This document shows positions 4,539-62,201 of a DNA stretch of 64,000 nt, piece by piece. This stretch comes from Cyanidioschyzon merolae (lineage: Eukaryota), in the NCBI GenBank assembly GCA_000091205.1, contig AP006497.2; one strand, given 5' to 3'. The position numbers were made by a program, and so were the translations under genes. The stretch's first letter is position 1. Every line of letters starts with the position of its first letter. A model generated the notes under the pieces. It did not search any database and was not told where the DNA came from. It saw only the letters and a list, made by a program, of their open reading frames with translations.

Positions 4539-5893
4539 CTCGGCTGCAGTGTCAGATAAAACTGGAACACTGAACTGCTTGCCCCCTATTACTGCCTTCC
4601 GATTCAATTCCAACTTGATCAGGATGCACAGATTCGACATTCGAGATGCATCACCGGGAATTTCCGGAGTCATGTGTAGTTCTAAGATGCTTGGTCGAGG
4701 GCTTCGAATGACGCCCTCGGCGCTTTGCCGCTCAACATCGGTTCTTCACCAGGATCAAGCGAATTCGCGACACACGATAACACTGGGATTCGTAAATACC
4801 TGTATGATGATCGAATGCATGGGCAAAAGCACTCGCGTTTCTCCGCTCCCTGCGTTTAGCATATGCAAACGACGCATTCCTCAAGTCATCGATCGACCTA
4901 CTGGACGCCGTGTAGGCGGGGCACAGCAACCTGCGCCACTGCGTTGACGGCGGTCAAAACTTGTCGTCGCTTCTTGAAGATCCATTCAAAAGCTCACATC
5001 CAAACCCAATGACCCGTCAAACGTTCGCGAATCGATTCCCCTCAAAACAAAAACCCTGCTGTCTTCCCGACTATCGATGAAGCTGCATTCGACAGCAACA
5101 GGATACGTCTCGCGGGATACGCTCCAGCAGGCTCCCGGCGGTGCCGCTCGCACCGAAACGGGTGCTGCACTCTGGCCTGAACTATCGCAGCGATCGTGTC
5201 CATTCCAGCATGCCTAGCCGTTTCGCACAACGGCAGCGTCGGCGAGTGGAAATCCCTCGACCCGTTCCCGAGCCAGGATTCTGTCTCTGGTGCTTGTTTC
5301 TTCATGGGACCACATCGCATTCCACGGATCCCTCATCCAATGGAAGCGCGTGTGCTCGGGCGTGCAGCGGGCAGTGCATTCGGCAAAAGCGTCGTCCCGA
5401 CGACGTGCTTGATCGAGGAGTACGGCATCGGGCGCGGCAAAACCGTGGCCGGCATCGACCGGAGCTCTCCGGACCCGTCAAGGGCATGTCCCGGGCGATG
5501 AAGCGGACGGTCGTGCACCGCAGGCCGGCAGTCGGCGACGGGGTCGTCGTGTGTGCCAACGGGAACGACTCGCCGTTGCCACGTGTCGTGGCTGTTCGGG
5601 GCGCGCGGACGCCGTACACATAGAGGAGGAGCCTGGCAAGCGAGGCGCAGATCGCGACCTTTGCCTCGGCATGAAATGCGTAAACAACAGCTGCAGCCAG
5701 CGAGATCGGGTCTTGAACGCTGCCATCGACAACCGTCGACTGCTGTGCATGGAGCTGGAGCGTGACCAGCGACCGGCGTATTTGAAGCTGGAGATCAGAT
5801 GGAGGGAAAGCAAGCCACCAGAGAAATACGTCGCAGAGGCCGGTGCTGATTGCTCTGGCAAGTGACCCAAAGTGTCGTGTGTGGGCCCGTTTT
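4539..5893. repeat. Right arm of the ~1.36-kb inverted repeat; pairs with 796-2152
   Basis: See the left arm. The arm ends in ...tcatcgaaaacggg (reverse complement) exactly as the left arm begins. A 2386-bp spacer between the arms holds the delta-COP gene. Confidence 0.8.
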
Positions 5894-17411: not shown

Positions 17412-17696
17412 TTTTTCTCGATTTCACGAGATGTTGACATAGGCCAGCGTTCCTCGACGGTGCGCCTGATATCAGCGCGCGGTAAAGCATCCATTGATCC
17501 AACTACTTCCAGGTTCAATATTCTATACTTCATCTCGGATATACTAGTCGTCTCATACGTACTATCGTGTGCCGCGTGCCTGGCGTAATCGTCCGCGATA
17601 TAGCGCCCGTACCGTCGGTGCGGATGCAGCACGGAGACAGAACGACTCTGGCGCGCCCCAGAGTGCGTCAGCTCGAGCGCGTAAACTGATACCCAC

Positions 17697-18053: not shown

Positions 18054-20093
18054 TTAGGTTTCTTTGAAAGCAATGAAATTGTTTATGGCCTTAGGTGAGG
18101 ACCGTCCCCGAGGGAGAGCGACTGGAAGAAGAAAGACGACACGTGTCCAGGTGTCACCGTGTGCTGAACACTTCAGCGAATCACTCTGTGTAGCGATCAT
18201 TATATTTCACGATAGAAATCACTCCGCTTTATTGGGTTGAATCACGCAGAGCATGTGAGAATGAAAAGCAGATCTACCCCGGAAAGAATCAGCAAAAGCC
18301 CAAACGCACGGGGGATGGTGAAACGCCACGTTGTCCAGTAGAAGGACGTCGTTAGACATCGAGGAATAGTCTTCAATGATTGGACAAAGTGCGTGCCGTC
18401 GTTTGAGCCTTCTCCACGAGCGAAACCGAGGCCACGAAATGAATCCATTGCCGCTCGAACAGAGGATGTCGTCGTTCTATTCGAGTTCGATCGTACATAC
18501 AACATGCTTCCTCGCCGCGAATCCCCATGTACGCTCCGACACTTTCGTCCGAAGCAAGTCCCATTGACTGAAACAAAATACCAACATCGCTGTGCGTCAT
18601 AACGATCGCGACATTCCAGGAACGCTGTCGTTGCGACCTCGGTGAAAGATGGCTGTGAATGAACGAGGACTCTTTTTTTGCGACTGTTTCCGAGTGATTT
18701 CAGGACCATACGAATAAGGTGCACCGGAACGGAAATGGCCTTGGATGCGACGATTGTCGCATTTGCTCTCCGTTACCTGTTCAAAGGATCGTTTCCCGCC
18801 ATTGACATCAAGCGCGCTTTGAGAGTGTCGGTTTGTTTTTCGCGGAACGCATATCTTTCTTTCTTTCAGTGTTCCTAAACCACATGAGTACGGTCGTATG
18901 AATAACCGAAGAGGAATGCAGTCCTCCTTACATTCTTCAGTAAAGAATATATCCTAAAGGCAAATCGTGAGCAATCTATACGGCACATTGCATCGTGAGT
19001 AAACCGAATTCAGTTGTAAGGCTATACCGCATTTGGATTATACACCTCGTTCGATTCACGGATCATCATGTACCACTGCAACGGGCGGCGGTTTTCTCAC
19101 CGCCACGAGAAAATGGTATCCGTGCCAAAAGACAGTCCAAAAGGATGCTTCCTTCAGATACTCGGCGCGCCTTTGTTCTACAGAGTTGTCCATGTCGCGT
19201 ACTATTCCGCCTCTGTGCCGAGTCCCGCGGCCATTTTCTTGAAGAGGGATTCTGGAATAGCGCCTGGCTCTCGCACCGATGCATCGCAGCGCTGGAACAA
19301 TGCCATCGGTGACGCTGTTGGACGCAGAGGTGCCCCGAGTATGCACACTGCTGCTCATATTTCTTGAGTCTGTCAGCTGTTTTAGGTGCTTCACATGTAA
19401 TCTAAATGCACATCGATTGATGCGCACGCAGATGCCAGAGACACGGAAATTCGATGTTTATTCCGCGTGCGATTATGGAGCCTGTCCAGAGATCTACTGG
19501 ATGCACGGGCGTTACTGGTCGGAAAATTGATGGACCCTGCTTGCGTCTGGGACACGGCCCGCAACACACTTTTCTCTGGTGTGGAACGCCCACATTTGCA
19601 TGTGAGTTGTCCTTTCAGGTCCAGCGTGCGTAGCGCTCGACGCCTGGTTCATTTCATGTACAGGGGCGTCTCTGGTGGCCGCTACAGACTCCAGTGACTG
19701 CGTTAGGATGCCTCCCGGCCGCGATACGCAACCTGTTTACATCGGCGCCAGCGTCTCCAGATGAACGACATGCCGGATGCTCGGCAATCGATTCGAGTAG
19801 CGAGGTGCTTGCACGCTCTGCACGGCAACGCTCGACACTGAAGCAAGCGGTTTGCGTAGAAGTTTCCGTGCGCGCACCAGTCTCAGATAAGTGTATCCGT
19901 GGCGGCTGCTACAGTTGCTGAAGCATCGCGCACAGGAATGATGTCTCTTTGTCATGTACGACTGGAAGCGATGACTCTCAAATAACGCTCCTCTGGGACG
20001 CGGCGAACCGACAGAAACCAAGACACTTGTGTATCGCTACCAAATCGGCATCTGTTCCCACCTGGTGCGATTGTATTCTCAGGGCATCAATGA

Positions 20094-20827: not shown

Positions 20828-20873
20828 ATGCGTGCGTGCATGCGTGCGTGCGTGCGTGCGTGCATGCGTGCGC
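20828..20873. repeat. (GCGT/GCAT)n alternating purine-pyrimidine tract upstream of the SNF1-like gene
   Basis: gcgtgcgtgcatgcgtgcgtgcgtgcgtgcgtgcatgcgtg, about 135-180 bp upstream of ATG 21007. Confidence 0.9.
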
Positions 20874-26055: not shown

Positions 26056-26089
26056 GCCTGCCTGCCTGCCTGGCTGCCTGCCTGCCTGG

Positions 26090-26124
<35 letters not shown>

Positions 26125-26182
26125 GCTGCCTGCCTGTCTGCCTGGCTGCCTGCCTGCCTGCCTGCCTGCCTGTCTGCCTGCC
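26056..26182. repeat. (CCTG)n tetranucleotide microsatellite with CTGG variants, about 127 bp
   Basis: gcctgcctgcctggctgcctgcctgcctggctgcctgcctgcc... is seen directly, between the LeuA-family gene (minus) and the VKOR gene (plus). Confidence 0.9.
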
Positions 26183-48309: not shown

Positions 48310-50278
48310 CAGGGATCCCAGATTGCGGGATGGATTTCGGCAAGCGGGAAAGTGTTTATGAAACTGTACCCTACCTTCAAGTTCCATTACCCATACTTGC
48401 TTTCGGATATACAGGTCTTTTCATAGGTTCCATCCAGCGGCGAATGGCTGCCTTGAGCACTCGCCGTAGCGCCTGCACCGCTCAAGCAGATGCTGCATAG
48501 AGAGTCAGAGGGGCTCTGCAATACCACAGAGGGCGTCGGCTCGAGGCGTCATTCATTCAACCTCGACTCGAGATTCGTAATGAAACTGGGAGCCTGCAAG
48601 CGCTGCTGGCAGACCTACTGTCTGCGGCAGCGCGAAGCAACAGACTAGGAGTCCACTGCGACCAGGGCGACGCCCAGACGCAGTAAAGCGGCGTCTAGAC
48701 CCAGAATGAACTGCGTTGCGGAAGAGTTGAACAGGTCTCACGAAAGCACCTGCCACTGGAGGAAGCATAAAGCGCGACCCGGGCAGACTCGTCCAGGTCG
48801 CGGGACCTTCCGCCTAGGGGGTAAGCTTTTGACGGCATCGGAAACTTTCCCCTCGTTTCACGTCTATCGTAAAGCGGGGAAGGAATCGTTATCTCGTTGC
48901 TATGTAGTGGTACGTTGCTGTTATTTTGTCTATACGGCGCTCGACAGGCGCACCTGGAATATCTGGCGGTCACGAGACAAGACGGATATCTCGCCGTTGA
49001 AGGGAAACCCGATCGTGATCATTTGCGTGTTGCTCTGACGTACAAGTTGTGTTTGCGTTACAGTCGTGCCAAAGTACAGTGTTTCATCTCGATGGTGTTT
49101 CGACCATCAAGCAACGATATTCCGGTAGTTTTCGCGCAGTTTGTATCAGAAGCGTTCAAAAAGCGTTCTTTTTCAAAAAAACAAAAAAGGAAAGTTTTGG
49201 AGAGGCAAGTCGACGATCCCAGAGGCCAAGTGTCACCGGATGCCGGAAAAAGCGGAGAGCACTGCCGAGCCCAGAAGCACTGGAGAGGAGTGCGACGCGG
49301 AAAGTGCATGAGAACGACTTGGTCGTTGGTGCAGACGCCGGAAACACGAAGATCAGGAACCATCGCCGTGCGCGAGTGTGCGGAAGATGGCGTGGACGGT
49401 AACCTACGTCCGAAAGACATGCGGCTTTTGAGCTTCTCGAGAGCGAGATGCTATCGAGAATCTGGAATCATGAATGCAAGGACAAAAATCGAGACGTGGA
49501 ACGCAGGAATGAAGGATCACGTGGAAGCTTCGAGCGATGTGACGAGCCGAGGAGCAGACTTTCAAACTTTTCTGAAATGCATGGAAGTTCGCGTCGCTGA
49601 CTGGGAGGCGCTGTGGAAAGCGTATCCAAAGCCCCGGTGGGCTCGTCTGCGTATGCGTCTATACTGTGGGAAGCAGCGCGCATTCGCCAATTTTTTCAAT
49701 CCACTGAACGCCTTGAAGGAGGACGAGGGTCAGAGGCTCCTAGTAGCGTACGGAGCAGGGCGCTGGATGACCCAAAACAGGATATACGCCAGCTCCAACA
49801 ACAAGAACGTACAAGGAGCGCGCACGGCGTTTTGTCACCATACCGATAGATGCGTTCCGAACATCGTACACACACCATGAGCTGGGCTGCACGCTTCAGA
49901 GGGTCGAGATAGAAAAGTGCCAGCGGGGCCCTGAGCATTTAAAAAAGTACGGAGCGCCGACGGAAGAGCAAATGGAAAGGAGGGCAAAAGTGCGAGAGCT
50001 ACTCGCATTAGTATATACAACCAGTGATGGCAAGAAACGTATGGAATTCGTGAACCGAGACTTGAACGCCGCTATCAATATTCGGAGAAGTGCGGTGATG
50101 GGGAAAAGACCTCCAGAGTTGACAGGAGAGAATTTTGTGGGGCAGCGTCTCATGGTCGAATTGTACAGAATGAAAATGAAGCCAGTTGTAGGTGGCCAGT
50201 CGAGCGAGACAGTGAGGCTTCGGCGTTTCAGTTGGAGACGTTTTGTGTAGGGCGCGTTTGCCGCCACTGCTGTGCACC
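48310..50278 (+). mobile_element. Copy B of the ~1.97-kb TnpB/Fanzor-like element
   Basis: See copy A. It has the same two-frame gene structure and the same frameshift. About 12 substitutions relative to A cluster in 39176-39700/48897-49421, and most are non-synonymous. Confidence 0.65.
48897..50250 (+). pseudogene. TnpB/Fanzor-like RuvC nuclease gene, copy B, with the same +1 frame split
   Basis: The 327-aa frame-1 ORF differs from A at about 9 residues (for example GVDGNL vs GMDGNL). The frame-2 C-terminal part, including NRDLNAAINIRR, is identical to A. Confidence 0.6.
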
Positions 50279-50328: not shown

Positions 50329-51222
50329 TTGGCGCACCTCCGGAGGACTGACACTGGGCCCGGGCGGTCATCTGTGCAACAGTCGCATGTTCTCGGTATT
50401 CTTCGCTCATATCTGCTTCGCCCGCTCACCACTCGTGGACGCAGTCACTGGCACGCAGTACCGAGCCGAGCACTCGTGGCCGTAGCAGAGCGCCCTGCTG
50501 GCCCTGGAGGCGTGCAAAAGCGCACCGAACGCGTCGTACCGAGTGAGGCCGCTCGACAGGAGCGCACTGCCCGTCTGCGTCGCGCCGTAGACCTTCCACA
50601 AAATCGCATTTATCCCTTTCTAGAGCATAAGGTTGCTGGCGAGGCCAAACGCAAGGACCTCCTGGCCGTTCTGGAGCAGGACTCGAGTCGCTTCGAAGAT
50701 GAACGAGCCATTCGTGACTGGGTTGAGTCACAGATTCAGGAAGCGATTCGGCAAGGGGCGTTCGAGCGGCTCCCGCGAGGGCCACTGCAGCTGCCGCAAC
50801 CACCACTCGGTGTCGACCTTGTCACGTATACCATGCATGGTCTTTTACAGCGGCACGGACTGCGACCTGTCTGGATAGAATGTATGCATGAAGTAGACGC
50901 CGAAGTGAAACGTATTCGTCTGGCTCTGGAACGAGCGTATCGAGCTCGAGTTGCTACCGCCGAGGACACGTCACCTGCGAGCACAGCACAACGAGCTGAG
51001 CGCTGGGAGGCAGCAGCGCGGGAGCTCCAGGAACAGATGCATCAAGTGAACCGACGAAATGATGCTTTTAATCTCATGAAACCCGAGCGCCTGGACACTG
51101 TTTTCCGACTGCGCATGCGTTGGGAGCACGAATTCATGCGCGTCAAGCAACGAGTGGAAAGCGAGTACTCAGCTGAACCGCGTAGCAGTTTAGCTCCGGA
51201 GGCAACGGACCCGAAAGCTTGA
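50329..51222 (+). CDS. DUF1992 (DnaJC28 C-terminal domain family) protein; start codon unresolved
   Basis: IRDWVESQIQEAIRQGAFERLPRGPLQL resembles the DUF1992 core (W.E..I.EA...G.FDNLPG.GKPL). The ORF opens at TTG 50329 immediately after a TAA. The first in-frame ATG falls only at about residue 165, downstream of the conserved core. Confidence 0.45.
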   Translation: MAHLRRTDTGPGRSSVQQSHVLGILRSYLLRPLTTRGRSHWHAVPSRALVAVAERPAGPGGVQKRTERVVPSEAARQERTARLRRAVDLPQNRIYPFLEHKVAGEAKRKDLLAVLEQDSSRFEDERAIRDWVESQIQEAIRQGAFERLPRGPLQLPQPPLGVDLVTYTMHGLLQRHGLRPVWIECMHEVDAEVKRIRLALERAYRARVATAEDTSPASTAQRAERWEAAARELQEQMHQVNRRNDAFNLMKPERLDTVFRLRMRWEHEFMRVKQRVESEYSAEPRSSLAPEATDPKA

Positions 51223-53427
51223 CGGTTTCATGGGATGTTTATGAACATACGGAGCGCCTTTACAATCGATAAAGGTCATAGCGGTCAAGTATCTAGTGGT
51301 CGTTGATACCGATGATATTTGCCATGGCGAGCATGATGATGAGAATGAGCATCTTCACGCGATGGATGTGCGATGCATCATACAGTAGATCATGCGTTCG
51401 TCTACGTTGATCCGATAACGCTCATGTCAAAATACAGTTCGATGGGATCGGGTAGACAAGTCAGGTGTACGTCCTTAAATTTCATCTCTTCCCATTGTAA
51501 TAAACACCAGTCCGTGTCGGAGTTTTTTGCAACTGCTCACTTGTCGTCTCCCTCGTACCGCTGGCTTTCAATTAGCTGGTACCTCCTAGTCCTGCAGCTC
51601 GGTCGCCAACTCTTGAGAACTGTTTACCGCAGCGTTCAGGTCCGGTATTCTGCTGCTTACTCCTGTTGTGCACCAATTTCGTGCACAGACAAAGGTTGCG
51701 ATCTAGGCCTCACCTGCCATGTTCATCGTTCCTGTGCACATTTTTGGTGCGCTCGTCACTGCTGTGACACTTAGTTGTGGTCAGGTGCTTCCGTGTGACC
51801 GCCGCTTACGCTTCTTTGCGCGTCACCCTGTGGCGTATAAACGCTTGCCTTATCGCTCAGTGCATGCCCTCTACGGATACGGAAGGCGTCCACAGATTCC
51901 CGCATCCGTTTCTGGAACTCGAGCCATTTCCTGCGATCCTGGGCTTGTCATCGTCAATGCTTTCGGCGAGTACACTGTCTGCTGCATGCGCTAGCGCACA
52001 CTGTCCCAGGCAATACAGGGCTTATGGAACGCAATGTTGCCCGTGATGAGAAAAGTACCGGAAGTAAAATCCAAGCCGGAGAACAAGTAAGGAAAATTCG
52101 GTCCGCCTGTCCGCCGTTCGTGCAAGGCGACGATGCACGCTCCACTGGAAGCAAGCGCTGCGATGCCTAAACCACGAGTCGAGCAACCCTTTCCACGCAA
52201 CTAGAAGAGATCGAAGCCTCTGTGAGCACATCTCACGGGGTGTATCATGCTGCCGTCGAATCCTGACTTGTCGATGGCCACACAGTCAGGATGATTTATC
52301 ATTCGATCTGAACTGATTTTTCGACCTGAAAAGTTACGGGTACTTTCTGCATGAGCTTATAGAAAAGGCCGTTAACCAGTGGCGTCCAGTTTATGCCTTG
52401 TCAATCAAGCCGCGCAAATAGCTACGCCCGCGAATTGCCCTGAAACAAAAAATTCGAAAACCTGAATCACGCGTGATTTCAGCATGCTTCTCGCAAGGAA
52501 ACAGGATGATTCGAGCCGTGTCCATATGCATCGGATTCTGATATCCATCATTTCACGAATCCTTGTTCGAAGGTTTCCAACATCCTTTTGTTTTCCATAA
52601 CGCTACAAACTCCAGCTGCAAATCACGAAAGCAACCCCTCGAAAATTCAACAGAAAACCGGTTTGCGCATTCCTGAACTCGTTATGGATGAACCTCGATG
52701 TCGAGACTGTACATCTAGCAACCATTTCAAACAAAAATAGTTATTCATAGACAGCGCATGTATCTCGGTAAACATCGATCACAGGGATCCGCGGCGCGCG
52801 CGCTCGCTCGCGCATCTGGCACAATCGATCCAAACCTGCACGCACGCGATGCCAGGAGCGATACTGCCCCGCGATTCGACGCAGCGGCGATGCGCGGATT
52901 CCCAAGCAATATATCTGGCAGGGGCGCGGAGCGTTGCCGGTTGAACGCCGCCTCGGTCGGTGTGCTGCGTGGCGAAAGGCGGCAGCATGCAGCGCAGCGC
53001 CGCCTGCGCAGCACGGGACACGTGTACGAACGCCTCCGCTGCGCATCCGTTTTTTCGCGTAGTGCCTGCTCTGGACGCTTGCTGTGACGCGTCATAGACC
53101 CTGGGGCTTGCTCTCTCTGTCTCTCTCTGTGTGTGCGCGCGCTTGGGTGTGCCCTTGTGCTGTACAACTGTCGCCGTTACGTAGGTGAGTTGTCAGACCG
53201 TTGGCACGCGTTTGTGCGCGCGCGAGTCAACTGGTGTCCGCACAACGTTTCGGGTGAGACGCGTAGAGGCTGCTGAGCGGACGCGTGTGTATCTGCAAAC
53301 CTGCCCTGCGTGGCGCCTAGACTCGCGGGAGACACGCGTCTGGAACGGTGATCGACGTGGTGGAAGGAACGCGTGGTGCTGGTGCGTGAAGCTTGCGTGT
53401 TTTTCACGAGCTGCACCTGCGTGCGGA

Positions 53428-54789
53428 ATGCCGGCTGACTGCAGCGACCGGCCTTCAGCGGCAAGCGACGCGACAAACGGTTTGGAGCACAGGCACGATA
53501 GCCTCGTTTCCGAACCTGTAGTTCAGGACTCTGATCTCGCTGGAGGAAGCAGTGGAAGCTGTCCCGTCCCGACGGCACCGGTGAGCTCGTTGCAGTCGGA
53601 GTGCACCTCGGCGACCAAAAGCAGTGTGGGAGCACCGGCGAGCGATCCGCACCATGCCCGGGAGCTGGCGCTTGCAGACCTTGCGGAAAACGGCCCCAAC
53701 AACTTCGCACCTAACTCCAATGCAATCCACCAGACCATATCTTATTCAGCGGATCGTCTGATAGGCAACGGTTCCTTTGGCGTCGTTTTCCAGGCGACAG
53801 TGGTCGAGACCGGCGAGATCGTGGCCATCAAGAAAGTCATCCAGGACAAGCGGTACAAGAATCGGGAACTGCAGATTATGCGGATGCTCTCCCATCCAAA
53901 TATCGTAGAATTGAAACATTGCTTTTTCTCCTCCGGAGAAAAGACAGGGGAAGTGTGCCTCAACCTTGTGCTCGAGTACATACCCGAGACGGTCTACCGC
54001 ATTTCAAGGCACTACTCGAAACTACGCCAACCGATGCCGCTTTTGTACGTGCGTCTCTACGCATACCAACTACTTCGCGCCTTGGCCTATATCCACGACT
54101 TGAACATCGCACATCGCGACGTGAAACCGCAGAATCTCCTCGTCGAGCCGCGCACGCAAGTGCTCAAGTTATGCGATTTTGGGTCCGCCAAGGTTCTAGT
54201 ACCCGGAGAAAAATCCCTCTCCTACATAGTTTCACGCTTTTACCGGGCAATCGAGTTACTGATTGGTTCAGAAGACTATACGCCAGCGATTGACCTCTGG
54301 AGCGCAGGCTGCGTCATTGGGGAACTCCTGCTCGGGCGTCCGCTTTTCTGCGGTGAGTCGGGCCTCAGCCAGCTGATCGAAATCATCAAAGTTCTGGGCG
54401 CACCAACCGAGGAAGATCTCGTCGCGATGCGGAGCAAGCACAGTGACTTCAAAATTCCCCGGGTGCAGCCATTGACGCTTCGGCGTGTCTTCAAAGCACG
54501 CACGGACGCCGATGCTGTCGATCTGGTTAGCCAGTTGCTCGTCTACAATCCGCAGAAGCGGATTCGGGCGATGCAGGCGCTTGCGCATCCCTTTTTTGAC
54601 CCACTGCGCCAACTGGAAGCAGCCCTGCCGAACGGTCGTCCGTTACCGCCCCTGTTCAACTTCTCCCAACGAGAATGGGAAATCGCTGGAATCGACCTTG
54701 CTCATCGTATCCTTCCACGCGAGCACTTTGAAGCGGCGCTACGCATGTACGGGGTGTCTCGCCAGCGGGCGTCGGGCGCCTCCGCGTGA
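53428..54789 (+). CDS. Glycogen synthase kinase-3 (GSK3/shaggy)-like protein kinase
   Basis: [89 protein letters not shown] and [39 protein letters not shown] are strongly GSK3-like. The track start is GTG 53185; the first ATG is 53428. Confidence 0.9.
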
Positions 54790-54922
54790 ACGGCGCCACT
54801 GGCTGGGTACCCAGACGCCGCGAAAACAACCGTATGCATGTTCGACGGCTGGACAGGGCATCGCGCTAGGTTGCCTTCGGATCCTCTGTAAAGTCTCTAA
54901 CCATCGCTGCGACGCGCAATGA

Positions 54923-57900
54923 TCATGGATTCTCTCCATGAGGTTCCAGGGATGTTGGAGGCGACTCGTACTCGCGCTCCGAGGGGTATCTGCTGGCATG
55001 CTGTTGCCACTTTCGAACAGAAGCAGCAGTTGCCAGCAGCAGCGTCCGCGTTCGTTCTTCGAGGCCCTGCTGGGTTTCTTTCGTAGCCAGGTACGCGGCA
55101 ACTTGGTCGACCTGCAGCGCGCCGCCTTCCACTGGCATCCAACAGAACGGAACCGCGTAGACGCGCAGGCTACCTCCGTGGCGATGTCCGCAGACCTCGT
55201 TTTCCCAAAACGTACGCAGCAACGCGTGGAACTTGACCAGCGAAAGCGTACCTGTTGCGTTCACGTCTGTTGCCGCCTCATCGGTGTCTTGCTTCAAGAG
55301 CGCGCGTAGGTAGCGAGCCTCCTGTTCTCCTCGTTGGTACTGGTAGGTACCGTGCTCTATCTCGGCCCAGAAGCGCGCACCCCGTTCGGGGAGGTTTCGA
55401 TCCGGCTCCTCTCGTTTCTCTGCCATCGCCTCCAGGTACGGCCGCAGGTCATCGACGCGCAGGCGCTGCAGCTGGTTCTGGTAAAAGTCGTGGAGAAAGC
55501 ACTCGAGCCGTTCGGCAACATGCCACGGCGGATGCCGCTCCGTCGACTGTACCAGGAAGAAGAGTCCCTGCGCTCCGCACCGGCGATACACAAAGTTGGA
55601 TACCACATAGCCCAGCTGTTGGACAGTGCGTAGCTCGTGGAACAGCGGCTTCTGGAGCAGGTTCGAGAGCACCTCTACCAAGAGATCCCGTTCCAGGGAG
55701 CGCACGCCCGTCTGCACATAGTATCCGAGGCTCGCATTCGACTCCGTTGCGTTTGGCAGTGGAATGAAGAGCCCCAGGGGCGAGAGCTCCGCAGGGATGC
55801 GCAACTGGTGGCACTCGAGTCGCCGGAGAAACTGACGAAGGTCGCCGACCTCTGGACGCAAACACGGCTGGACAATCGCCATGCAGCGATCAAAAAGCAG
55901 TCTTGCTTCGTCTTCGGTCACATTGCCATGGAGAAGCGCTTCGACGACGAGGTTGCGCATGGAGCACCCAGGCGCCCCGGATGCACCACCGAACAGTGTC
56001 GTTCGGAATGCGTCGACGCTTTCCAGAGAGAAACGTTCGGTCCCAGCTGATGACGCTTCCCGCAACAACGAGAGATAGTCCCAGGTCGCGTGCCAGTGCG
56101 GTAGCTGCAGCAGCACGCGTGTGTTGTACATTACCTGCTGATACGGTTTCTGCAAGGCAGCATCCTCGTAAGAGCGTCGCAGACGATCCAGATGCGCGTC
56201 CAGGAGCCGCTGACGAATCTCCGTCGACTGCTTGACATCCTCGCCTGAGCAGGTTGCTGCAGCGGTGCGGAAAACATGCTCGGTGAAGCGGATGAAGGTA
56301 TCGGCGAAGCCGCTGAGACCAAGGAAAACACCCGTTGCTGTGGGCGTGAGTGTATACGACATGCCCGCGAGTTCGGCATCGTACGCACTCGCTGTGAGCG
56401 CATCTTCAATGAGAGCTATCGCTAGTTTCGTGAAAATGGCCTGCTCAGGGCTCGCGTACGCCATATCTGTGTAGAGTTGAAAGAAGGCCTGAATTCGTGG
56501 CTGCCGAAAACTCGTATCCAGGCTGTGGTGGAGCACCCGACCTTGGGCCTCATCCAAGAGAAGGCAGCGAGGCAACGGCTGCTGACCGTTTGCGTCGGCC
56601 GCAGCGGTTCCCGCAGCCGGTGCTACCTTCAAGCTGAAAGAACGCGGCATGAACGGGTTCGGAAGCGGTACGTGGAGCGCACGCGCAGCGGGTGTCTCTG
56701 AGTACCAAGCGGCTGCTGGCATGGTGCCCGTCAGGTAACGCGTCTGGTACCAAGGCTCCAGGCCGTGCACTAGCTGCGTGGATTCCAGCCCATAAGCCTC
56801 AGGCTGCTGATACATTTCAGTGGTCACCAGAAAAACGATCGCCTGTTCAGGGCACATGTGCTCAGAGAGAAGCTCCCGCAGCGCACAGGCGGATGGACGA
56901 TCCCAGTAGAGAAACGGCCCCGCCAGCACGTCCTCTGGATCAAAGACGCGGAGTGAGGAACTCAGCTCCACAACAGCCTGGAATGGTGAGGACTCTCGCT
57001 CCTGGTATCGAAAGTGGATCTCGCCAAGTAACTGCAGTTCCTCGTAGATGTAGGAAGGCAAGTCGGCGTCGAGGATATCTCCGGGCCCCAGCAGAGTACG
57101 CAGTAGGCGCAAGTAGGCACCTACTAGACTCAGCGTTTGTTGCCAGTGAACAAGGCCCCGCTCGGTAAGTGCGATATCGATGTCAAAAAACGCGATGCCC
57201 GTTAATTCCCAAGAGACGCCCGCACTGAGGGCAGTGGCGAACCCGTGCTCCTTTAGCGCGGCGAGCAGCGAGCCATTCGACTCATGTCCCAGGAGGTGTG
57301 CAAGACAGTGTGCCGGCTTTGTGCGATACAGCGGCCGTTGCGGCGGTATCGTGAAGACGATGCGCATCTCCCGGAGCGCCTTCACCGGTTCCACGACATA
57401 AAGTTTGCCTTGGGGTTGGTGGTCCTCTCGAAAGAGTGGCTGATGCGCATAGGACGCGGCTGGCGCCTTCTGGAGGGCACGCGGCACCTCTCCGAATAGC
57501 GACCAAACAGCGGACTGCATTTCCGCCATCGTCTGGTGCGCGGTAAAACTGACGCATAAACACATGAGGTCAGCGCCATAGTACTGACGATGAAATTCGC
57601 AAAGTGCTTCCCGAACGCTTTCCTGGCTTTCAACGACCGCAGCTGGTAGGCAGGTTGGTGCTTGGTGCGGTTCTGCTGCGGCTTCTGCTGCTGCTGCTGC
57701 TGCTGCTGATGCGGACCCCAGAAGCGTCTCGCGGTTGCCCGTTCCAAAGTTGTGAAAGGGATGCACGGGGTCCGTGAGCGATTTGAGTAGTTGGAAAAGG
57801 CGATGGGTATCACTCTGAATATTCATGCGATACTCGGCATCGACAGCATCTACTTCACGCCCGACCGCGGCTTTGTGGAAGCGAGGGTGTAGGAAGCACT

Positions 57901-58351
57901 GTGCAAAGCGATCGAGTGTCTCCAGCAGCTGCTCGGGTCCGATTTCGAAGGCGTAGTTCGTCTCCTCTAATGAAGTGAAGGCATTTGCGTGCCCACCGTG
58001 ACGAGCGATGTGCTCATGATAGGCTCCTTCGTCAGGGTATTTGTCCGAGCCCAGAAAACACATGTGTTCACAGAAATGTGCCAGGCCAGGATACGAGGGC
58101 GGGTCCTGCATGTGACCAACGCCTACCGACATGGAGGCGGCAGCGCGGTTGGCCTTGGGATCTTGGATGAGAAGCACCTGCAAGTTGTTCGAGGCGAGTC
58201 GGAAATAGCAGTAGCTGCGTTCATCGATATCGGGTTTGCGGGGCCACTTGAACACAGTGACACCTTCAGGAGGCTCCGTGGCGGTACGGCAGGGCTCGAT
58301 GGAGCGCTGCGGTGCCGGCTGAACGGCGGGGTTTGAGGTAGGATCACTCAT
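54923..58351 (-). CDS. M16 family zinc metallopeptidase (insulinase/nardilysin-like, inverted HxxEH zincin)
   Basis: ATG at 58351. GLAHFCEHMCFLGSDKYPDEGAYHEHIARHGGHANAFTSLEETNY contains the HxxEH...E zinc-binding signature. The 1142-aa length fits a four-domain M16A enzyme. The N-terminal poly-Gln/Ala run comes from (GCT)n at 57684-57709. Confidence 0.85.
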   Translation of the reverse strand: MSDPTSNPAVQPAPQRSIEPCRTATEPPEGVTVFKWPRKPDIDERSYCYFRLASNNLQVLLIQDPKANRAAASMSVGVGHMQDPPSYPGLAHFCEHMCFLGSDKYPDEGAYHEHIARHGGHANAFTSLEETNYAFEIGPEQLLETLDRFAQCFLHPRFHKAAVGREVDAVDAEYRMNIQSDTHRLFQLLKSLTDPVHPFHNFGTGNRETLLGSASAAAAAAAEAAAEPHQAPTCLPAAVVESQESVREALCEFHRQYYGADLMCLCVSFTAHQTMAEMQSAVWSLFGEVPRALQKAPAASYAHQPLFREDHQPQGKLYVVEPVKALREMRIVFTIPPQRPLYRTKPAHCLAHLLGHESNGSLLAALKEHGFATALSAGVSWELTGIAFFDIDIALTERGLVHWQQTLSLVGAYLRLLRTLLGPGDILDADLPSYIYEELQLLGEIHFRYQERESSPFQAVVELSSSLRVFDPEDVLAGPFLYWDRPSACALRELLSEHMCPEQAIVFLVTTEMYQQPEAYGLESTQLVHGLEPWYQTRYLTGTMPAAAWYSETPAARALHVPLPNPFMPRSFSLKVAPAAGTAAADANGQQPLPRCLLLDEAQGRVLHHSLDTSFRQPRIQAFFQLYTDMAYASPEQAIFTKLAIALIEDALTASAYDAELAGMSYTLTPTATGVFLGLSGFADTFIRFTEHVFRTAAATCSGEDVKQSTEIRQRLLDAHLDRLRRSYEDAALQKPYQQVMYNTRVLLQLPHWHATWDYLSLLREASSAGTERFSLESVDAFRTTLFGGASGAPGCSMRNLVVEALLHGNVTEDEARLLFDRCMAIVQPCLRPEVGDLRQFLRRLECHQLRIPAELSPLGLFIPLPNATESNASLGYYVQTGVRSLERDLLVEVLSNLLQKPLFHELRTVQQLGYVVSNFVYRRCGAQGLFFLVQSTERHPPWHVAERLECFLHDFYQNQLQRLRVDDLRPYLEAMAEKREEPDRNLPERGARFWAEIEHGTYQYQRGEQEARYLRALLKQDTDEAATDVNATGTLSLVKFHALLRTFWENEVCGHRHGGSLRVYAVPFCWMPVEGGALQVDQVAAYLATKETQQGLEERTRTLLLATAASVRKWQQHASRYPSEREYESPPTSLEPHGENP

Positions 58352-58360
58352 GGCTATGAC

Positions 58361-58660
58361 AGCAAACAGAGCCAGGCGAGTCCTTCAATGTTAGAGAAGT
58401 TTTCCGCGAATCCGATCAGGGCCTGGTGGGTCCTTCTACCGTAGTGTCGTGACCGCCGACTGCAAACAAAGCCAGGCGAGTCTTCGAGACTTTGCGTAGT
58501 CTTCCGCGTTGTCGACAAAAGCCAGACAGCTCTCGCAATCTTACGGTCCTCTTCCGCGCCCTCAAACGGAGTCAGGCGGATCTTTACGTCGCAGTGTAGT
58601 TACCTGCGACGATGAATAGAGCCAGGCGAATACCCTTTTTTCTGACGTTTTCACTCACGA
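58361..58660. repeat. Six tandem degenerate 50-bp units with core AGCCAGGCGAGTC, in the 5' leader/promoter of the M16 peptidase gene
   Basis: Core occurrences at 58369, 58419 (degenerate: cagggcctggtgggtcc), 58469, 58519, 58569 and 58619, in exact 50-bp register. Each unit begins with a (g)caaac/(t)caaac-like stretch. Confidence 0.7.
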
Positions 58661-60992
58661 GCAGGCACCGGGCCGACGCGCAATGGTGCAGTGTGCTTCT
58701 CACTCTATGCTCACGAGCACGCGAAGGCAACTCATGAAGCGGCAGTTTGTTTTCGAAGTGTGTTCACTCGGGGGTACGAAATCTCCGCCTCGCACTTGAT
58801 TTGACCAGGTCGAAACAGTGGGCATTATGCTGGGAGCATTCTACGCTGGAATCTGTATACCAGCACCTCATTGTTTTTGTTTGTTTTCTACCAGCTGTTG
58901 AACAAACCCGGAGTATCCTGTGGATCGGAGAATAGCTGCGGAAAGACGATACGCGGTCACTGGTGGCTTACGAAGGACCGCGTTGCTTCGGCAAGCCAAT
59001 TATTCTACTATTAGCAGGTAGGTGAAGCTCCTGTCACGCAGTCCTCATTCAGAACGTCGCGTACCTAAACCAGAACTTGATTAACTCGATGAATATGAAT
59101 GCCTCTTCCTCGATCTTTTCCACTCGATAGATTCCCCAAGAAATGCTACCGAACAAGGCTAAGGATGCAAAGTCTTCGCACCGTGGATACGACCGGTGAT
59201 TACCAGACACGAATGTACTGGAAACAAATCGCGTTTCTATGGAGGAGTATCGCGCATTGACCAAGTACCTATCGATCTCGTACCGAGTCGCTAACGCTTA
59301 CTACATGGCGGGACGGATGCTCGCCAACTGTGGGGAGCATTCACCTGCGAGAAACGATAGACCTGTCCATAGGCTGGCAAAGAGCAGCAAACCGCTGTTC
59401 AGAAAGCAGAGGCAAGGAGCCTCTACAAAAGCGTCACCCCAAGCGCCGATTTCATCCTGTGTACGCCAACCAAGCGCCAAATGCATGGGATCATTCACCA
59501 TCTCGTCCTTCATCGAAGCGATTCGTGGCTTCTGTTTCCCACATGCCTCTGTCCAGGGCGTAGAACGTGTGGCTCCCGATTACCCAGAAGCGGTCGGCGA
59601 GTAGGCAGCTGAAATCCGCGTCGAGCTGCTGTTCCTGCTAGCCTCTTCTTTCTCGGTACGTCCGGTCAAAGGAGTCTTGTTTTTCGTGAAACACCGACTC
59701 GAAGCTCACCGATCCATCAATGAGTCGTGCCCATCTGGGACACACTTCCTCGATGAATCGCTCTTCGACATGTCGTTCTTGATGTCACCTGGCCCTGAAG
59801 TGGTGTGTTGCACCTCTGGTCATGCACTGGAGGGAGTGGTATGAGGCGCCTCGGTCCACGGGCGTGCTCGCGACCGAGAAGGTAGCAAAGAGGTATTCGA
59901 CGAGTCGCACGTATGCATACTTATAGAGAAAGCAAGTTTCGGTTCTACCTCTCACCCAATAAGACTGAATCCCGACGGAAACGAACCGATGTAGAGGGTA
60001 CCGATCACGGCTATGCTACCGCGCCAGGTAGCGGGGAAGAAGAGATCGGACAAGGAAGAAAAAAGATCCTCACGAAAAGAGGACAATAGGAGGCAGGAAG
60101 GAAAAACACGTCGGATCGGAACCATCAGTTTGCTGTCGTCGTTAATGACTTGCTAATACAACACAACAACGAGAAGAATCTTTTGAAGCGTGCGATGCAG
60201 GTCGCCAGGCGCGATCGCGTAGCTTCGAACTCGACAAGTCTCGCGGAGCGTCTCCCGCCTTGCCGCGCATCGTCGAGCATCTAATCCAGGGCACCCGGAC
60301 ACCCAGCGCTGCTACCTGTCCACATGGTTCTCGGAATCTTTCGATCAAACCTTCATGCGATCATACAGTTCATGTTCACGACAGAACATGTCGTACGGTA
60401 TGATCCAAGGATCGGAAGTTTGCATACTCACACACATAGACAGTCACGCTTCCCAGTGTACCTTGAGCGGTCGCCACACCACCTCAGCGACTGGAACCTT
60501 AATAGCACAGATACCAAACAGGATCAAACCATGCCCAGCCGCTCCTACACCAGACGTCTGGGGACAGAGGCGCAAAGCAATGCTCGGATGCACGTCGCAC
60601 CCGATGACATCATCGATCTCATTCGAAACAAGGAGCATCTCACGAACGGGGCGCTCTATCCATGCGGCATACTGAAAAAATAACACAAAAAAGTAAGACA
60701 AGAAAAATGCGCATCCTCGGAGAACGCTGGCTTAAGGAAACGTTTTGTCCATGAGAAAAAAATCCATGCGGCATCATCGCGGCGGACTGCTGCACACACG
60801 TTGCGCCGAGACGCCAACGCGCCCCTGCGAATCGATCGTCGCGGATACGCCGCCGCCCGGCAGGCCGCAGCGGCGCCCGGCAGGAGATCGGATCTACGGG
60901 CGAGGCGCGGGTAGCCCGCAGGTCCCCGCAGTCGTAGCACGAGGCGTTGTCGTCACTGGTGCTGGCGAAGGTCTGCTTTCACTGGGCTCTTG

Positions 60993-62201
60993 ATGATAGG
61001 CTCACACGGTGAACGCGCTATTTCCATGCCTCCTCGACCTGTGCGTACCGTACTACGACGCTCCGTGGAGTTTAGTCTTTGTGCTGTTGGCATCTACGCA
61101 ACGTACCTGGGCTATGGCGTGCTGCACGAGCGGCTGTACTGGCGGCTTTACCGGACGCGTGATGGAGCAGCATACGACCGCTTCCGATACCCTCTCTTTC
61201 TTGTCTTCTGGCAGTGCCTGTGTAACGCAAGCGTCTCGTTTTTTTCTCGGAAAATCGCGCGGAGCACGCCTCACGACGAGCGTCTGCGGTTCAATGAAAA
61301 ACGACGTTTGTACAGCGCGGGAAGCGCAGCGTCGAGCCGTTTCTATGCGTTGGTTGCGGCGTGCCATGTGGTCGCCATGTGCTGTGCTTTCGGCGCACTG
61401 ATTTACGTTCCGTATCCTCTGCAAGTCCTCGCCAAGAGCAGTAAAATGATCCCAATCATGCTCACTGGAGCCGCGATGCGACGAAAGCGATACACCCGCA
61501 CCGAGATCATCCGCGTACTTTTGATCACGTTCGGTGTGGTGCAGTTCTCTCGGCAGCGGCACTCGAAGGAAAGTACTTTCCGACAGGCAGCAGTTCCAGG
61601 TCCGCAGTCAGGCGGTGGCCACCAGAGGCACCTGGGATGGGCGTTGCTCCTCATGAGCCTCGTTATGGACGGGATCGTAGGGCCGCTGCAAGAGCATACG
61701 CGCGCCCTCTTTGATGTTGAGGCGATTCACTTCATGTTTGCGCAGAATTCCTGGGCTACGTTCTGGATGACGTTGGTCCTGCTGGCGACAGGCCAGGGTG
61801 TTGCTGCATGGAGCTTTCTCCGAACACACCCGAGTGTCTGGCGAGACCTGTTCGGTTTCGGTCTGCTGAGTGCAATGGGACAACATTTTGTCTTCTACGT
61901 CGTTTGTCATTTTTCCGCACTCACTTTGGCGATGATCACGACAACTCGGAAACTCTTTTCTGTCCTGTTGAGCATTGTGGTATTTGCGCACAGGCTCTCC
62001 GTTGGTCAGGCCCTAGGGATGTGTTGCGCGTTCGCAGGATTGCTCTGGGAAGCGATAGCGAGTTTGGCCACGCGGAACGTGGCGGGCAGTGCGCTCAGCG
62101 GCAAGTGCTCGAGTTCTGTGCCAGGGGCGCAGGAGAAACAGGCCAGTGGAGCGAGTTGCAGAAACACGAGTACGTCTGTACATGTCGGCGAAGAGGGCTA
62201 G
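60993..62201 (+). CDS. SLC35B-like nucleotide-sugar/PAPS transporter (UAA transporter family)
   Basis: N-terminal LCAVGIYATYLGYGVLHERLY resembles the SLC35B signature (C..G...SYL..G.LQE.I). There are multiple hydrophobic helices. The track start is TTG 60990; ATG at 60993. Confidence 0.6.
   Translation: MIGSHGERAISMPPRPVRTVLRRSVEFSLCAVGIYATYLGYGVLHERLYWRLYRTRDGAAYDRFRYPLFLVFWQCLCNASVSFFSRKIARSTPHDERLRFNEKRRLYSAGSAASSRFYALVAACHVVAMCCAFGALIYVPYPLQVLAKSSKMIPIMLTGAAMRRKRYTRTEIIRVLLITFGVVQFSRQRHSKESTFRQAAVPGPQSGGGHQRHLGWALLLMSLVMDGIVGPLQEHTRALFDVEAIHFMFAQNSWATFWMTLVLLATGQGVAAWSFLRTHPSVWRDLFGFGLLSAMGQHFVFYVVCHFSALTLAMITTTRKLFSVLLSIVVFAHRLSVGQALGMCCAFAGLLWEAIASLATRNVAGSALSGKCSSSVPGAQEKQASGASCRNTSTSVHVGEEG

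Follow-up and report, generated by a model that had tools for sequence, protein, structure and literature searches.

The red alga Cyanidioschyzon merolae is a model amenable to genetics, and its genome is very poor in repeats. Why does one of its genes carry six phased copies of one short module beside its start codon, and do these copies act as regulatory sites or record an old duplication? The locus lies in a stretch of 64,000 nucleotides of contig AP006497.2, referred to here as the window. The gene (54923-58351, minus strand) encodes an insulysin or Ste23-type M16 metallopeptidase of 1142 amino acids with four insulinase domains and the HFCEH active-site motif. The protein is 100% identical to XP_005537605.1 of C. 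merolae 10D, which identifies the window as nuclear DNA of C. merolae, and the start codon is the same, with its ATG at 58351 on the minus strand. A six-fold module at such a position lends itself readily to serial deletion, and none of the endogenous promoters of C. merolae had been dissected up to 2025 (PMC12770821). The literature searched on C. merolae repeats, cis-elements, transcription start sites and insulysin holds no description of this array.

Anatomy and setting of the array

The array consists of six head-to-tail units of 50 bp at exact 50-bp spacing, 5' of the insulysin gene (58360-58659, minus strand), as delimited by a unit table, self-match and a profile. Its consensus in the sense of the gene is approximately TCGCGGAAGACTACNCTAAGNTNGAAGGACTCGCCTGGCTCTGTTTGCNG. 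Unit 1 is closest to the gene (58360-58409) and is followed by unit 2 (58410-58459), unit 3 (58460-58509), unit 4 (58510-58559), unit 5 (58560-58609) and unit 6 (58610-58659), all assigned to the minus strand. A spacer of 8 nt, TCATAGCC in gene sense, separates unit 1 from the start codon (58352-58359, minus strand). The initial annotation had set the first unit 10 bp upstream of the ATG; the adjoining position holds, and in the 50-bp framing the unit ends 8 nt away.

The self-match of the array is 0.49, 0.505 and 0.50 at lags of 50, 100 and 150, and does not exceed 0.36 at any of the remaining lags from 1 to 159, which bears out the earlier observation of six phased 50-bp repeats upstream of the M16 start codon. 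In a periodicity scan of the 64 kb with 250-nt windows, lags of 8-200 and a threshold of 0.42, only two features pass, namely the array, which scores 0.512 at lag 50 from a start at 58351, and a GCCT microsatellite. By our own arithmetic, the lag-50 signal stands ~9 SD over a background near 0.26. The self-match values and the whole-window scan together place the phasing far beyond chance.

The units have diverged considerably. Pairwise identity ranges from 34 to 74% with a mean of about 51%, a lower figure than the 60-80% first given, and Tandem Repeats Finder does not detect the array even at a score of 30 because the units are too degenerate. The periodicity is thus demonstrated by autocorrelation, to which a profile of the six units adds matches to its own units at E values of 3.5e-10 to 5.3e-6, partly by construction as the model was built from them. 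With a constant period between 10 and 100 bp and at least three head-to-tail copies, the array has the structure of a minisatellite. The otherwise repeat-poor window also contains tetranucleotide and 12-nt repeats, such as TGCG x11 at 20829-20872; the GCCT microsatellite spans 26056-26182, with ~32 copies that include GCCTGGCT variants, in a divergent intergenic region.

The array belongs to the untranslated 5' flank, since several stops across it are in frame with the insulysin ATG, its period of 50 is not divisible by three, and it is covered by no ORF of at least 60 amino acids. The stops and the period, together with a sense strand that holds no ATG within the array, rule out a coding repeat in the form of an N-terminal extension or an array of upstream ORFs. 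The ATG-free stretch on the sense strand extends over 381 nt from the start codon and contains the whole array, with five ATGs on the other strand (58352-58732, minus strand), and represents a candidate 5' leader. Shuffled versions of this 381-nt upstream region are free of ATG in 0.18% of cases, a depletion that fits a transcribed leader but is weaker evidence than it looks, since the repetition of an ATG-free unit inherits its ATG-freeness. Most of the 18 long ORFs in the window are preceded by long stretches free of ATG, with a median of about 150 nt and a maximum of 640 nt, consistent with a general avoidance of upstream ATGs in C. merolae leaders.

Given the length of sense strand without ATG, the array probably lies partly in the 5' UTR. 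A transcription start site about 165 bp upstream is reported for another C. merolae gene (PMC12989068), and if the insulysin leader were of typical length, the array would extend over the 5' UTR, the transcription start site and the core promoter. An alternative explanation places the whole array in a transcribed leader of at least 310 nt, in which the repeats would be putative sites for RNA-binding proteins or would serve translational control. The asymmetry between the sense strand and the five antisense ATGs speaks for such an RNA-level element, as does the existence of C. merolae leaders longer than 150 nt (PMC12989068). However, the array folds no more stably than shuffled sequence (z = +0.23 for the sense and -0.31 for the antisense strand), no Rfam family matches it at gathering thresholds, and its freedom from ATG is inherited from the founder unit and is common in the window, all of which renders an RNA-level element improbable. 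A relaxed Rfam scan of 58000-61100 returns only a chance GcvB match at 60057-60189, outside the array, and a tRNA search finds none. The candidates of RNA structure, tRNA or permuted tRNA and snoRNA-like boxes were likewise examined and nothing was found, and a scan for sigma-70 promoters and terminators was uninformative, being irrelevant to a eukaryote.

The array could also be a piece of some dispersed repeat or mobile element lying beside the gene by chance, a case that the initial annotation had named as its own refutation. The best-conserved 20-mer, GACTCGCCTGGCTYTGTTTG, occurs at three loci in the JGI metagenome contigs, and all three are the array locus itself at 99.2-99.8% identity, one of them on a 120-kb C. 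merolae-type contig. The six-unit profile (nhmmer) finds no further copy in the 64-kb window or in the Cyanidiococcus loci L002 (Cyanidiococcus yangmingshanensis) and L003 (a JGI metagenome genome), with a best non-self E value of 0.16, and blastn-short of the whole intergenic region finds no further copy in the 64 kb or in L002 and L003. The closest similarity outside the array, in the DJC28 coding region (~50905-50925), covers a 16-mer with a single mismatch and is within chance, with an expectation that we estimate at about 0.4. As far as the JGI contigs, the window and these two loci show, the array is single-locus. There is also no ORF, terminal repeat or target-site feature at the array, and an origin from a dispersed element is very hard to credit.

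Conserved boxes and divergence of the units

Read on the plus strand, every unit contains at offset 10 a core resembling AGCCAGGCGAGTC, or GACTCGCCTGGCT in gene sense, which includes the near-palindrome GCCWGGC. The core of unit 1 (58370-58382, minus strand) lies 19-31 nt upstream of the ATG. The cores of units 2 to 6 are found at 58420-58432 (GGCCTGGTGGGTC), 58470-58482 (exact), 58520-58532 (AGCCAGACAGCTC), 58570-58582 (AGTCAGGCGGATC) and 58620-58632 (AGCCAGGCGAATA); their exact 50-bp spacing agrees with the initial annotation, whose positions all shift by one base (58370 and not 58369 for the first). Two of the six cores are exact (58370 and 58470), the core at 58620 has two mismatches and that at 58570 has three, and those at 58420 and 58520 each have four in 13 positions by reading. 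A second conserved box, TTTTCCGCGA on the plus strand and TCGCGGAAAA in gene sense, occupies 58400-58409 (minus strand), and a box resembling TCTTCCGCGA is present at the 3' end of most units in the plus-strand reading. Its CGCGGAA is intact in unit 1, unit 3 (58503-58509) and unit 4 (58553-58559), and degenerate in units 2, 5 and 6.

The 13-mer core is not over-represented in the window, where 20 matches with up to three mismatches are found against 25.6 expected. The non-random part of the array is its phasing and the similarity of whole units, not the abundance of the 13-mer.

The recurrence of both boxes raises the possibility of a homotypic cluster of transcription-factor binding sites, in which each unit would carry a candidate site for a probably dimeric DNA-binding protein that recognises GCCWGGC within GACTCGCCTGGCT, with the CGCGGAA box ~30 bp from the core. 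Amplification would then have built or strengthened the insulysin promoter after an inversion had cut away the ancestral upstream region. GCCWGGC keeps at least six of its seven bases in five of the six units, and the central A/T swap in unit 2 would be tolerable to a palindromic site. Since GCCWGGC or a one-off variant is found in five units and exact CGCGGAA in three, both exceed or reach the three occurrences by which such clusters are recognised. A run of nine columns, AGCCAGGCG, is kept in at least five of the six units, more than uniform decay would leave (p about 0.002, for a statistic chosen post hoc). The post hoc choice itself counts against the cluster, as does a column variance across units that is not over-dispersed (p = 0.23); the lag-1 autocorrelation has p = 0.21. 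The spacing of 50 bp corresponds to ~4.76 helical turns, so that successive sites would not be expected to face the same side of the helix.

Among the other 17 genes of the window, neither GCCWGGC nor CGCGGAA is present in the 500 bp before the start, except for GCCWGGC inside the GCCT microsatellite and one site near 17580. This distribution weighs against the homotypic cluster, which we regard as possible and somewhat doubtful. CGCGGAA resembles E2F and CGCG-box sites and is one base off the E2F consensus TTTSSCGC. From a comparison by eye with the E2F, CAMTA CGCG-box, forkhead (RYAAAYA), MYB and HSE consensus sequences none was adopted; each resemblance is one base off or confined to one or two units.

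Variation within the species provides a second view of the units. The comparison set comprises 18 C. merolae-type sequences, namely the window and ENA, JGI and Logan contigs, whose M16 proteins are at least 99% identical; the DNA of four loci compared directly is 99.2-99.8% identical to the window. Six units are present in 18 of 18 sequences. The array thus lacks the copy-number polymorphism of a VNTR, while structurally a minisatellite, and is fixed within the species and no longer slippage-prone. Its constant copy number and the divergence of 26-66% between units sustain the earlier view that the array is old and not the product of fresh slippage. Fixation of six units in every strain would also suit a homotypic cluster.

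Point variation is distributed unevenly. The array contains seven polymorphisms in 301 bp (23 per kb), compared with 31 in the 3429 bp of the coding sequence (9 per kb). Units 4-6, the distal half, hold six of the seven, against one in the 151 bp of the proximal units 1-3. In the core of unit 6, a SNP that changes CGCCTGGCT to CGCTTGGCT segregates at about 50% frequency. The 390 bp beyond the array hold about three real SNPs, as read from the listing after contig-end artefacts were discarded. The scarcity of polymorphism in the proximal units argues for binding sites in a homotypic cluster, whereas the core SNP and the concentration of polymorphism in the distal units argue against them.

Two further kinds of variation are seen at the locus. 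The poly-Ala run of insulysin (57666-57712, minus-strand coding, residues about 213-219) is encoded by a GCN/CTG-type trinucleotide repeat and, in contrast to the constant copy number of the array, varies in length, with 3, 4, 7 or 8 alanines giving proteins of 1138, 1139, 1142 and 1143 amino acids. Upstream, many independent metagenome contigs (L006, L008-L013, L018 and L020) end 726-781, 470 or 356-373 bp from the insulysin ATG. Such stops fall at about 59077-59132 and about 58707-58821 of the window, some with odd end sequence, and their recurrence suggests a mixture of strains or a structural variant in the intergenic region.

The divergence among units constrains their history. With an SSR of 0.175, where noise alone would give 0.071, a star tree with equal rates is rejected. 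Successive duplications in a clock-like ladder, with unit 6 the oldest and units 1 and 3 the youngest, fit within noise (SSR 0.032), and a single burst, modelled as a star tree with unit-specific rates, slow in units 1, 3 and 5 and fast in units 2, 4 and 6, fits at least as well (SSR 0.015), six units of 50 bp being too few to separate the two. The ladder represents a neutral history. The unit-specific rates would suggest selection on some units, and their best fit is a point in favour of the homotypic cluster. Mismatches to the consensus number 3, 10 and 16 in units 1, 3 and 5, and 18, 20 and 26 in units 2, 4 and 6. The divergence of units is independent of their physical separation, which is not what simple neighbour-by-neighbour duplication predicts. 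A higher-order unit of 100 bp is rejected on the same independence and on the dissimilarity of the even units to one another (46%, 34% and 34%).

The rearranged flank of the gene

The nearest relatives of the M16 protein are 63% (L002), 62% (L003) and 45% (L017) identical to it. The M16 proteins fall into two groups, one with at least 98.8% and the other with at most 63% identity, without intermediates, and a comparison of core and spacer conservation is defeated by this gap in distance. No periodic array is present within about 1.2 kb upstream of the M16 orthologs in L002 and L003, and the 13-mer core has no match there with up to two mismatches. At such distances intergenic DNA can no longer be aligned, not even that of L002 with that of L003, and the flank is rearranged. 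The absence of the sequence from orthologs therefore says little, and it is the absence of any array that is informative and that counts against a homotypic cluster. The array marks the species, being fixed at the same copy number in all sampled C. merolae-type genomes, with none before the ortholog of the sister genus.

Gene order differs between the two lineages. In L002, L003 and the outgroup L017 the order is M16(+)-kinase(-)-UAA(+)-X(-), and in C. merolae it is X(+)-UAA(-)-M16(+)-kinase(-)-DJC28(-), the orthology of the compared genes having been confirmed by BLASTP and Pfam. The insulysin-kinase pair (window 53185-58351) is inverted relative to Cyanidiococcus and a more distant cyanidiophyte, with both breakpoints in 5' flanks, and an inversion of this pair in the Cyanidioschyzon lineage is the simplest history. 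It follows from the gene order that the 5' flank of M16 that carries the array is a derived inversion breakpoint in C. merolae. The divergent neighbour on the other side of this flank, a UAA-family nucleotide-sugar transporter (60993-62201, plus strand), starts about 2.6 kb away; only in C. merolae does it adjoin the M16 5' flank, and this adjacency marks the breakpoint. No inverted repeats are found at the two inversion breakpoints, and the best candidate, in DJC28, is within chance.

The window also holds a 327-aa ORF at 48897-49880 (plus strand), between DJC28 and a tRNA U5-methyltransferase gene. It has no Pfam match, and none of the genes called at the corresponding place in L002 or L003 is its counterpart.

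A derived breakpoint 5' of insulysin makes the need for a new promoter plausible, which counts in favour of the homotypic cluster. In its fullest form, the promoter would have been rebuilt after the inversion by amplification of a 50-bp module with a putative site (GCCWGGC plus CGCGGAA) for a red-algal transcription factor, and the array would be a working homotypic enhancer. We consider this rather unlikely. If it were true, the array would offer, for an organism without known promoter architecture, a first endogenous cis-element open to dissection.

The explanation that we lean towards, with modest confidence, is an old tandem amplification of insulysin's own leader or proximal promoter, specific to Cyanidioschyzon, that persists as a decaying minisatellite. 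Replication slippage or unequal exchange would have multiplied a piece of ~50 bp from the proximal promoter or 5' leader into six head-to-tail copies. The array would then have been fixed and have decayed through point substitution. Slippage is now prevented by the differences between the copies, and copy number is stable as a result. The inversion of the insulysin-kinase pair would have set the 5' end of insulysin, the site of the array, beside its new neighbour. Transcription probably takes in most or all of the array as an ATG-free 5' leader, or else starts within it. A sequence-specific role, if there is one, is likely confined to the proximal units 1-3, which may serve an ordinary promoter or leader function, and the distal units 4-6 appear to evolve without visible constraint.

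How close to neutral this decay has been can be judged indirectly. Denser polymorphism in the array than in the coding sequence and a SNP in the core of unit 6 suggest weak constraint, and a ladder that fits within noise is compatible with a neutral history. The core run kept beyond uniform decay, the unit-specific rates and the few proximal polymorphisms point the other way and suggest weakly a function of the array beyond that of ordinary upstream DNA. Since it lies at an inversion breakpoint specific to its lineage, the array could reveal the way in which genes acquire upstream sequence anew following rearrangement.

Relation to known repeat systems

The kind of array described here is already known as the promoter-proximal minisatellite, and this instance is undescribed in the literature searched. 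As it stands, the array is a routine feature, a fossil minisatellite in the 5' flank of a gene, and it would gain moderate interest if the repeats were functional binding sites. In common with promoter-proximal minisatellites, it consists of a head-to-tail unit of tens of base pairs in non-coding DNA a few hundred base pairs 5' of a gene, and arose by local duplication. Vinces et al. in 2009 (Science, 'Unstable tandem repeats in promoters confer transcriptional evolvability') reportedly found repeats in a sizeable fraction of Saccharomyces cerevisiae promoters, and the INS VNTR lies upstream of human insulin. These repeats matter because unstable copy number tunes expression, whereas the C. 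merolae array is invariant across 18 sequences, 26-66% diverged and fossilised.

Homotypic clusters and repeated enhancer modules, such as the 60/81-bp enhancer repeats of the Xenopus rDNA spacer, resemble the array in the presence of a short core at fixed spacing near a gene, with the core somewhat better kept than the spacer. The array differs in its motif, which is not shared with the other promoters examined or with orthologous genes. The expression-site promoters of variant surface glycoproteins (VSG) in Trypanosoma brucei have upstream 50-bp repeats in arrays of tens of kilobases at many sites. The likeness extends only to unit length and upstream position and is a coincidence; kinship is rejected for an array of 300 bp at a single locus of a red alga, which is not a kinetoplastid.

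The closest parallels in organism are near-perfect two-copy tandem duplications of 93-101 bp in intergenic DNA of the Cyanidiococcus-type genomes, one in L002 (about 18390-18576) and two in L003 (about 18940-19143 and 4686-4860). Two of the three lie in the equivalent X-GDT1 intergenic region of L002 and L003, and their sequence is unrelated to the array. They share with the array the class of organism, the intergenic setting and tandem duplication, and differ from it in having two near-identical copies instead of six old and diverged ones. These duplications of ~100 bp show that the generating process is at work in these algae, and plausibly represent the young stage of the process that formed the array.
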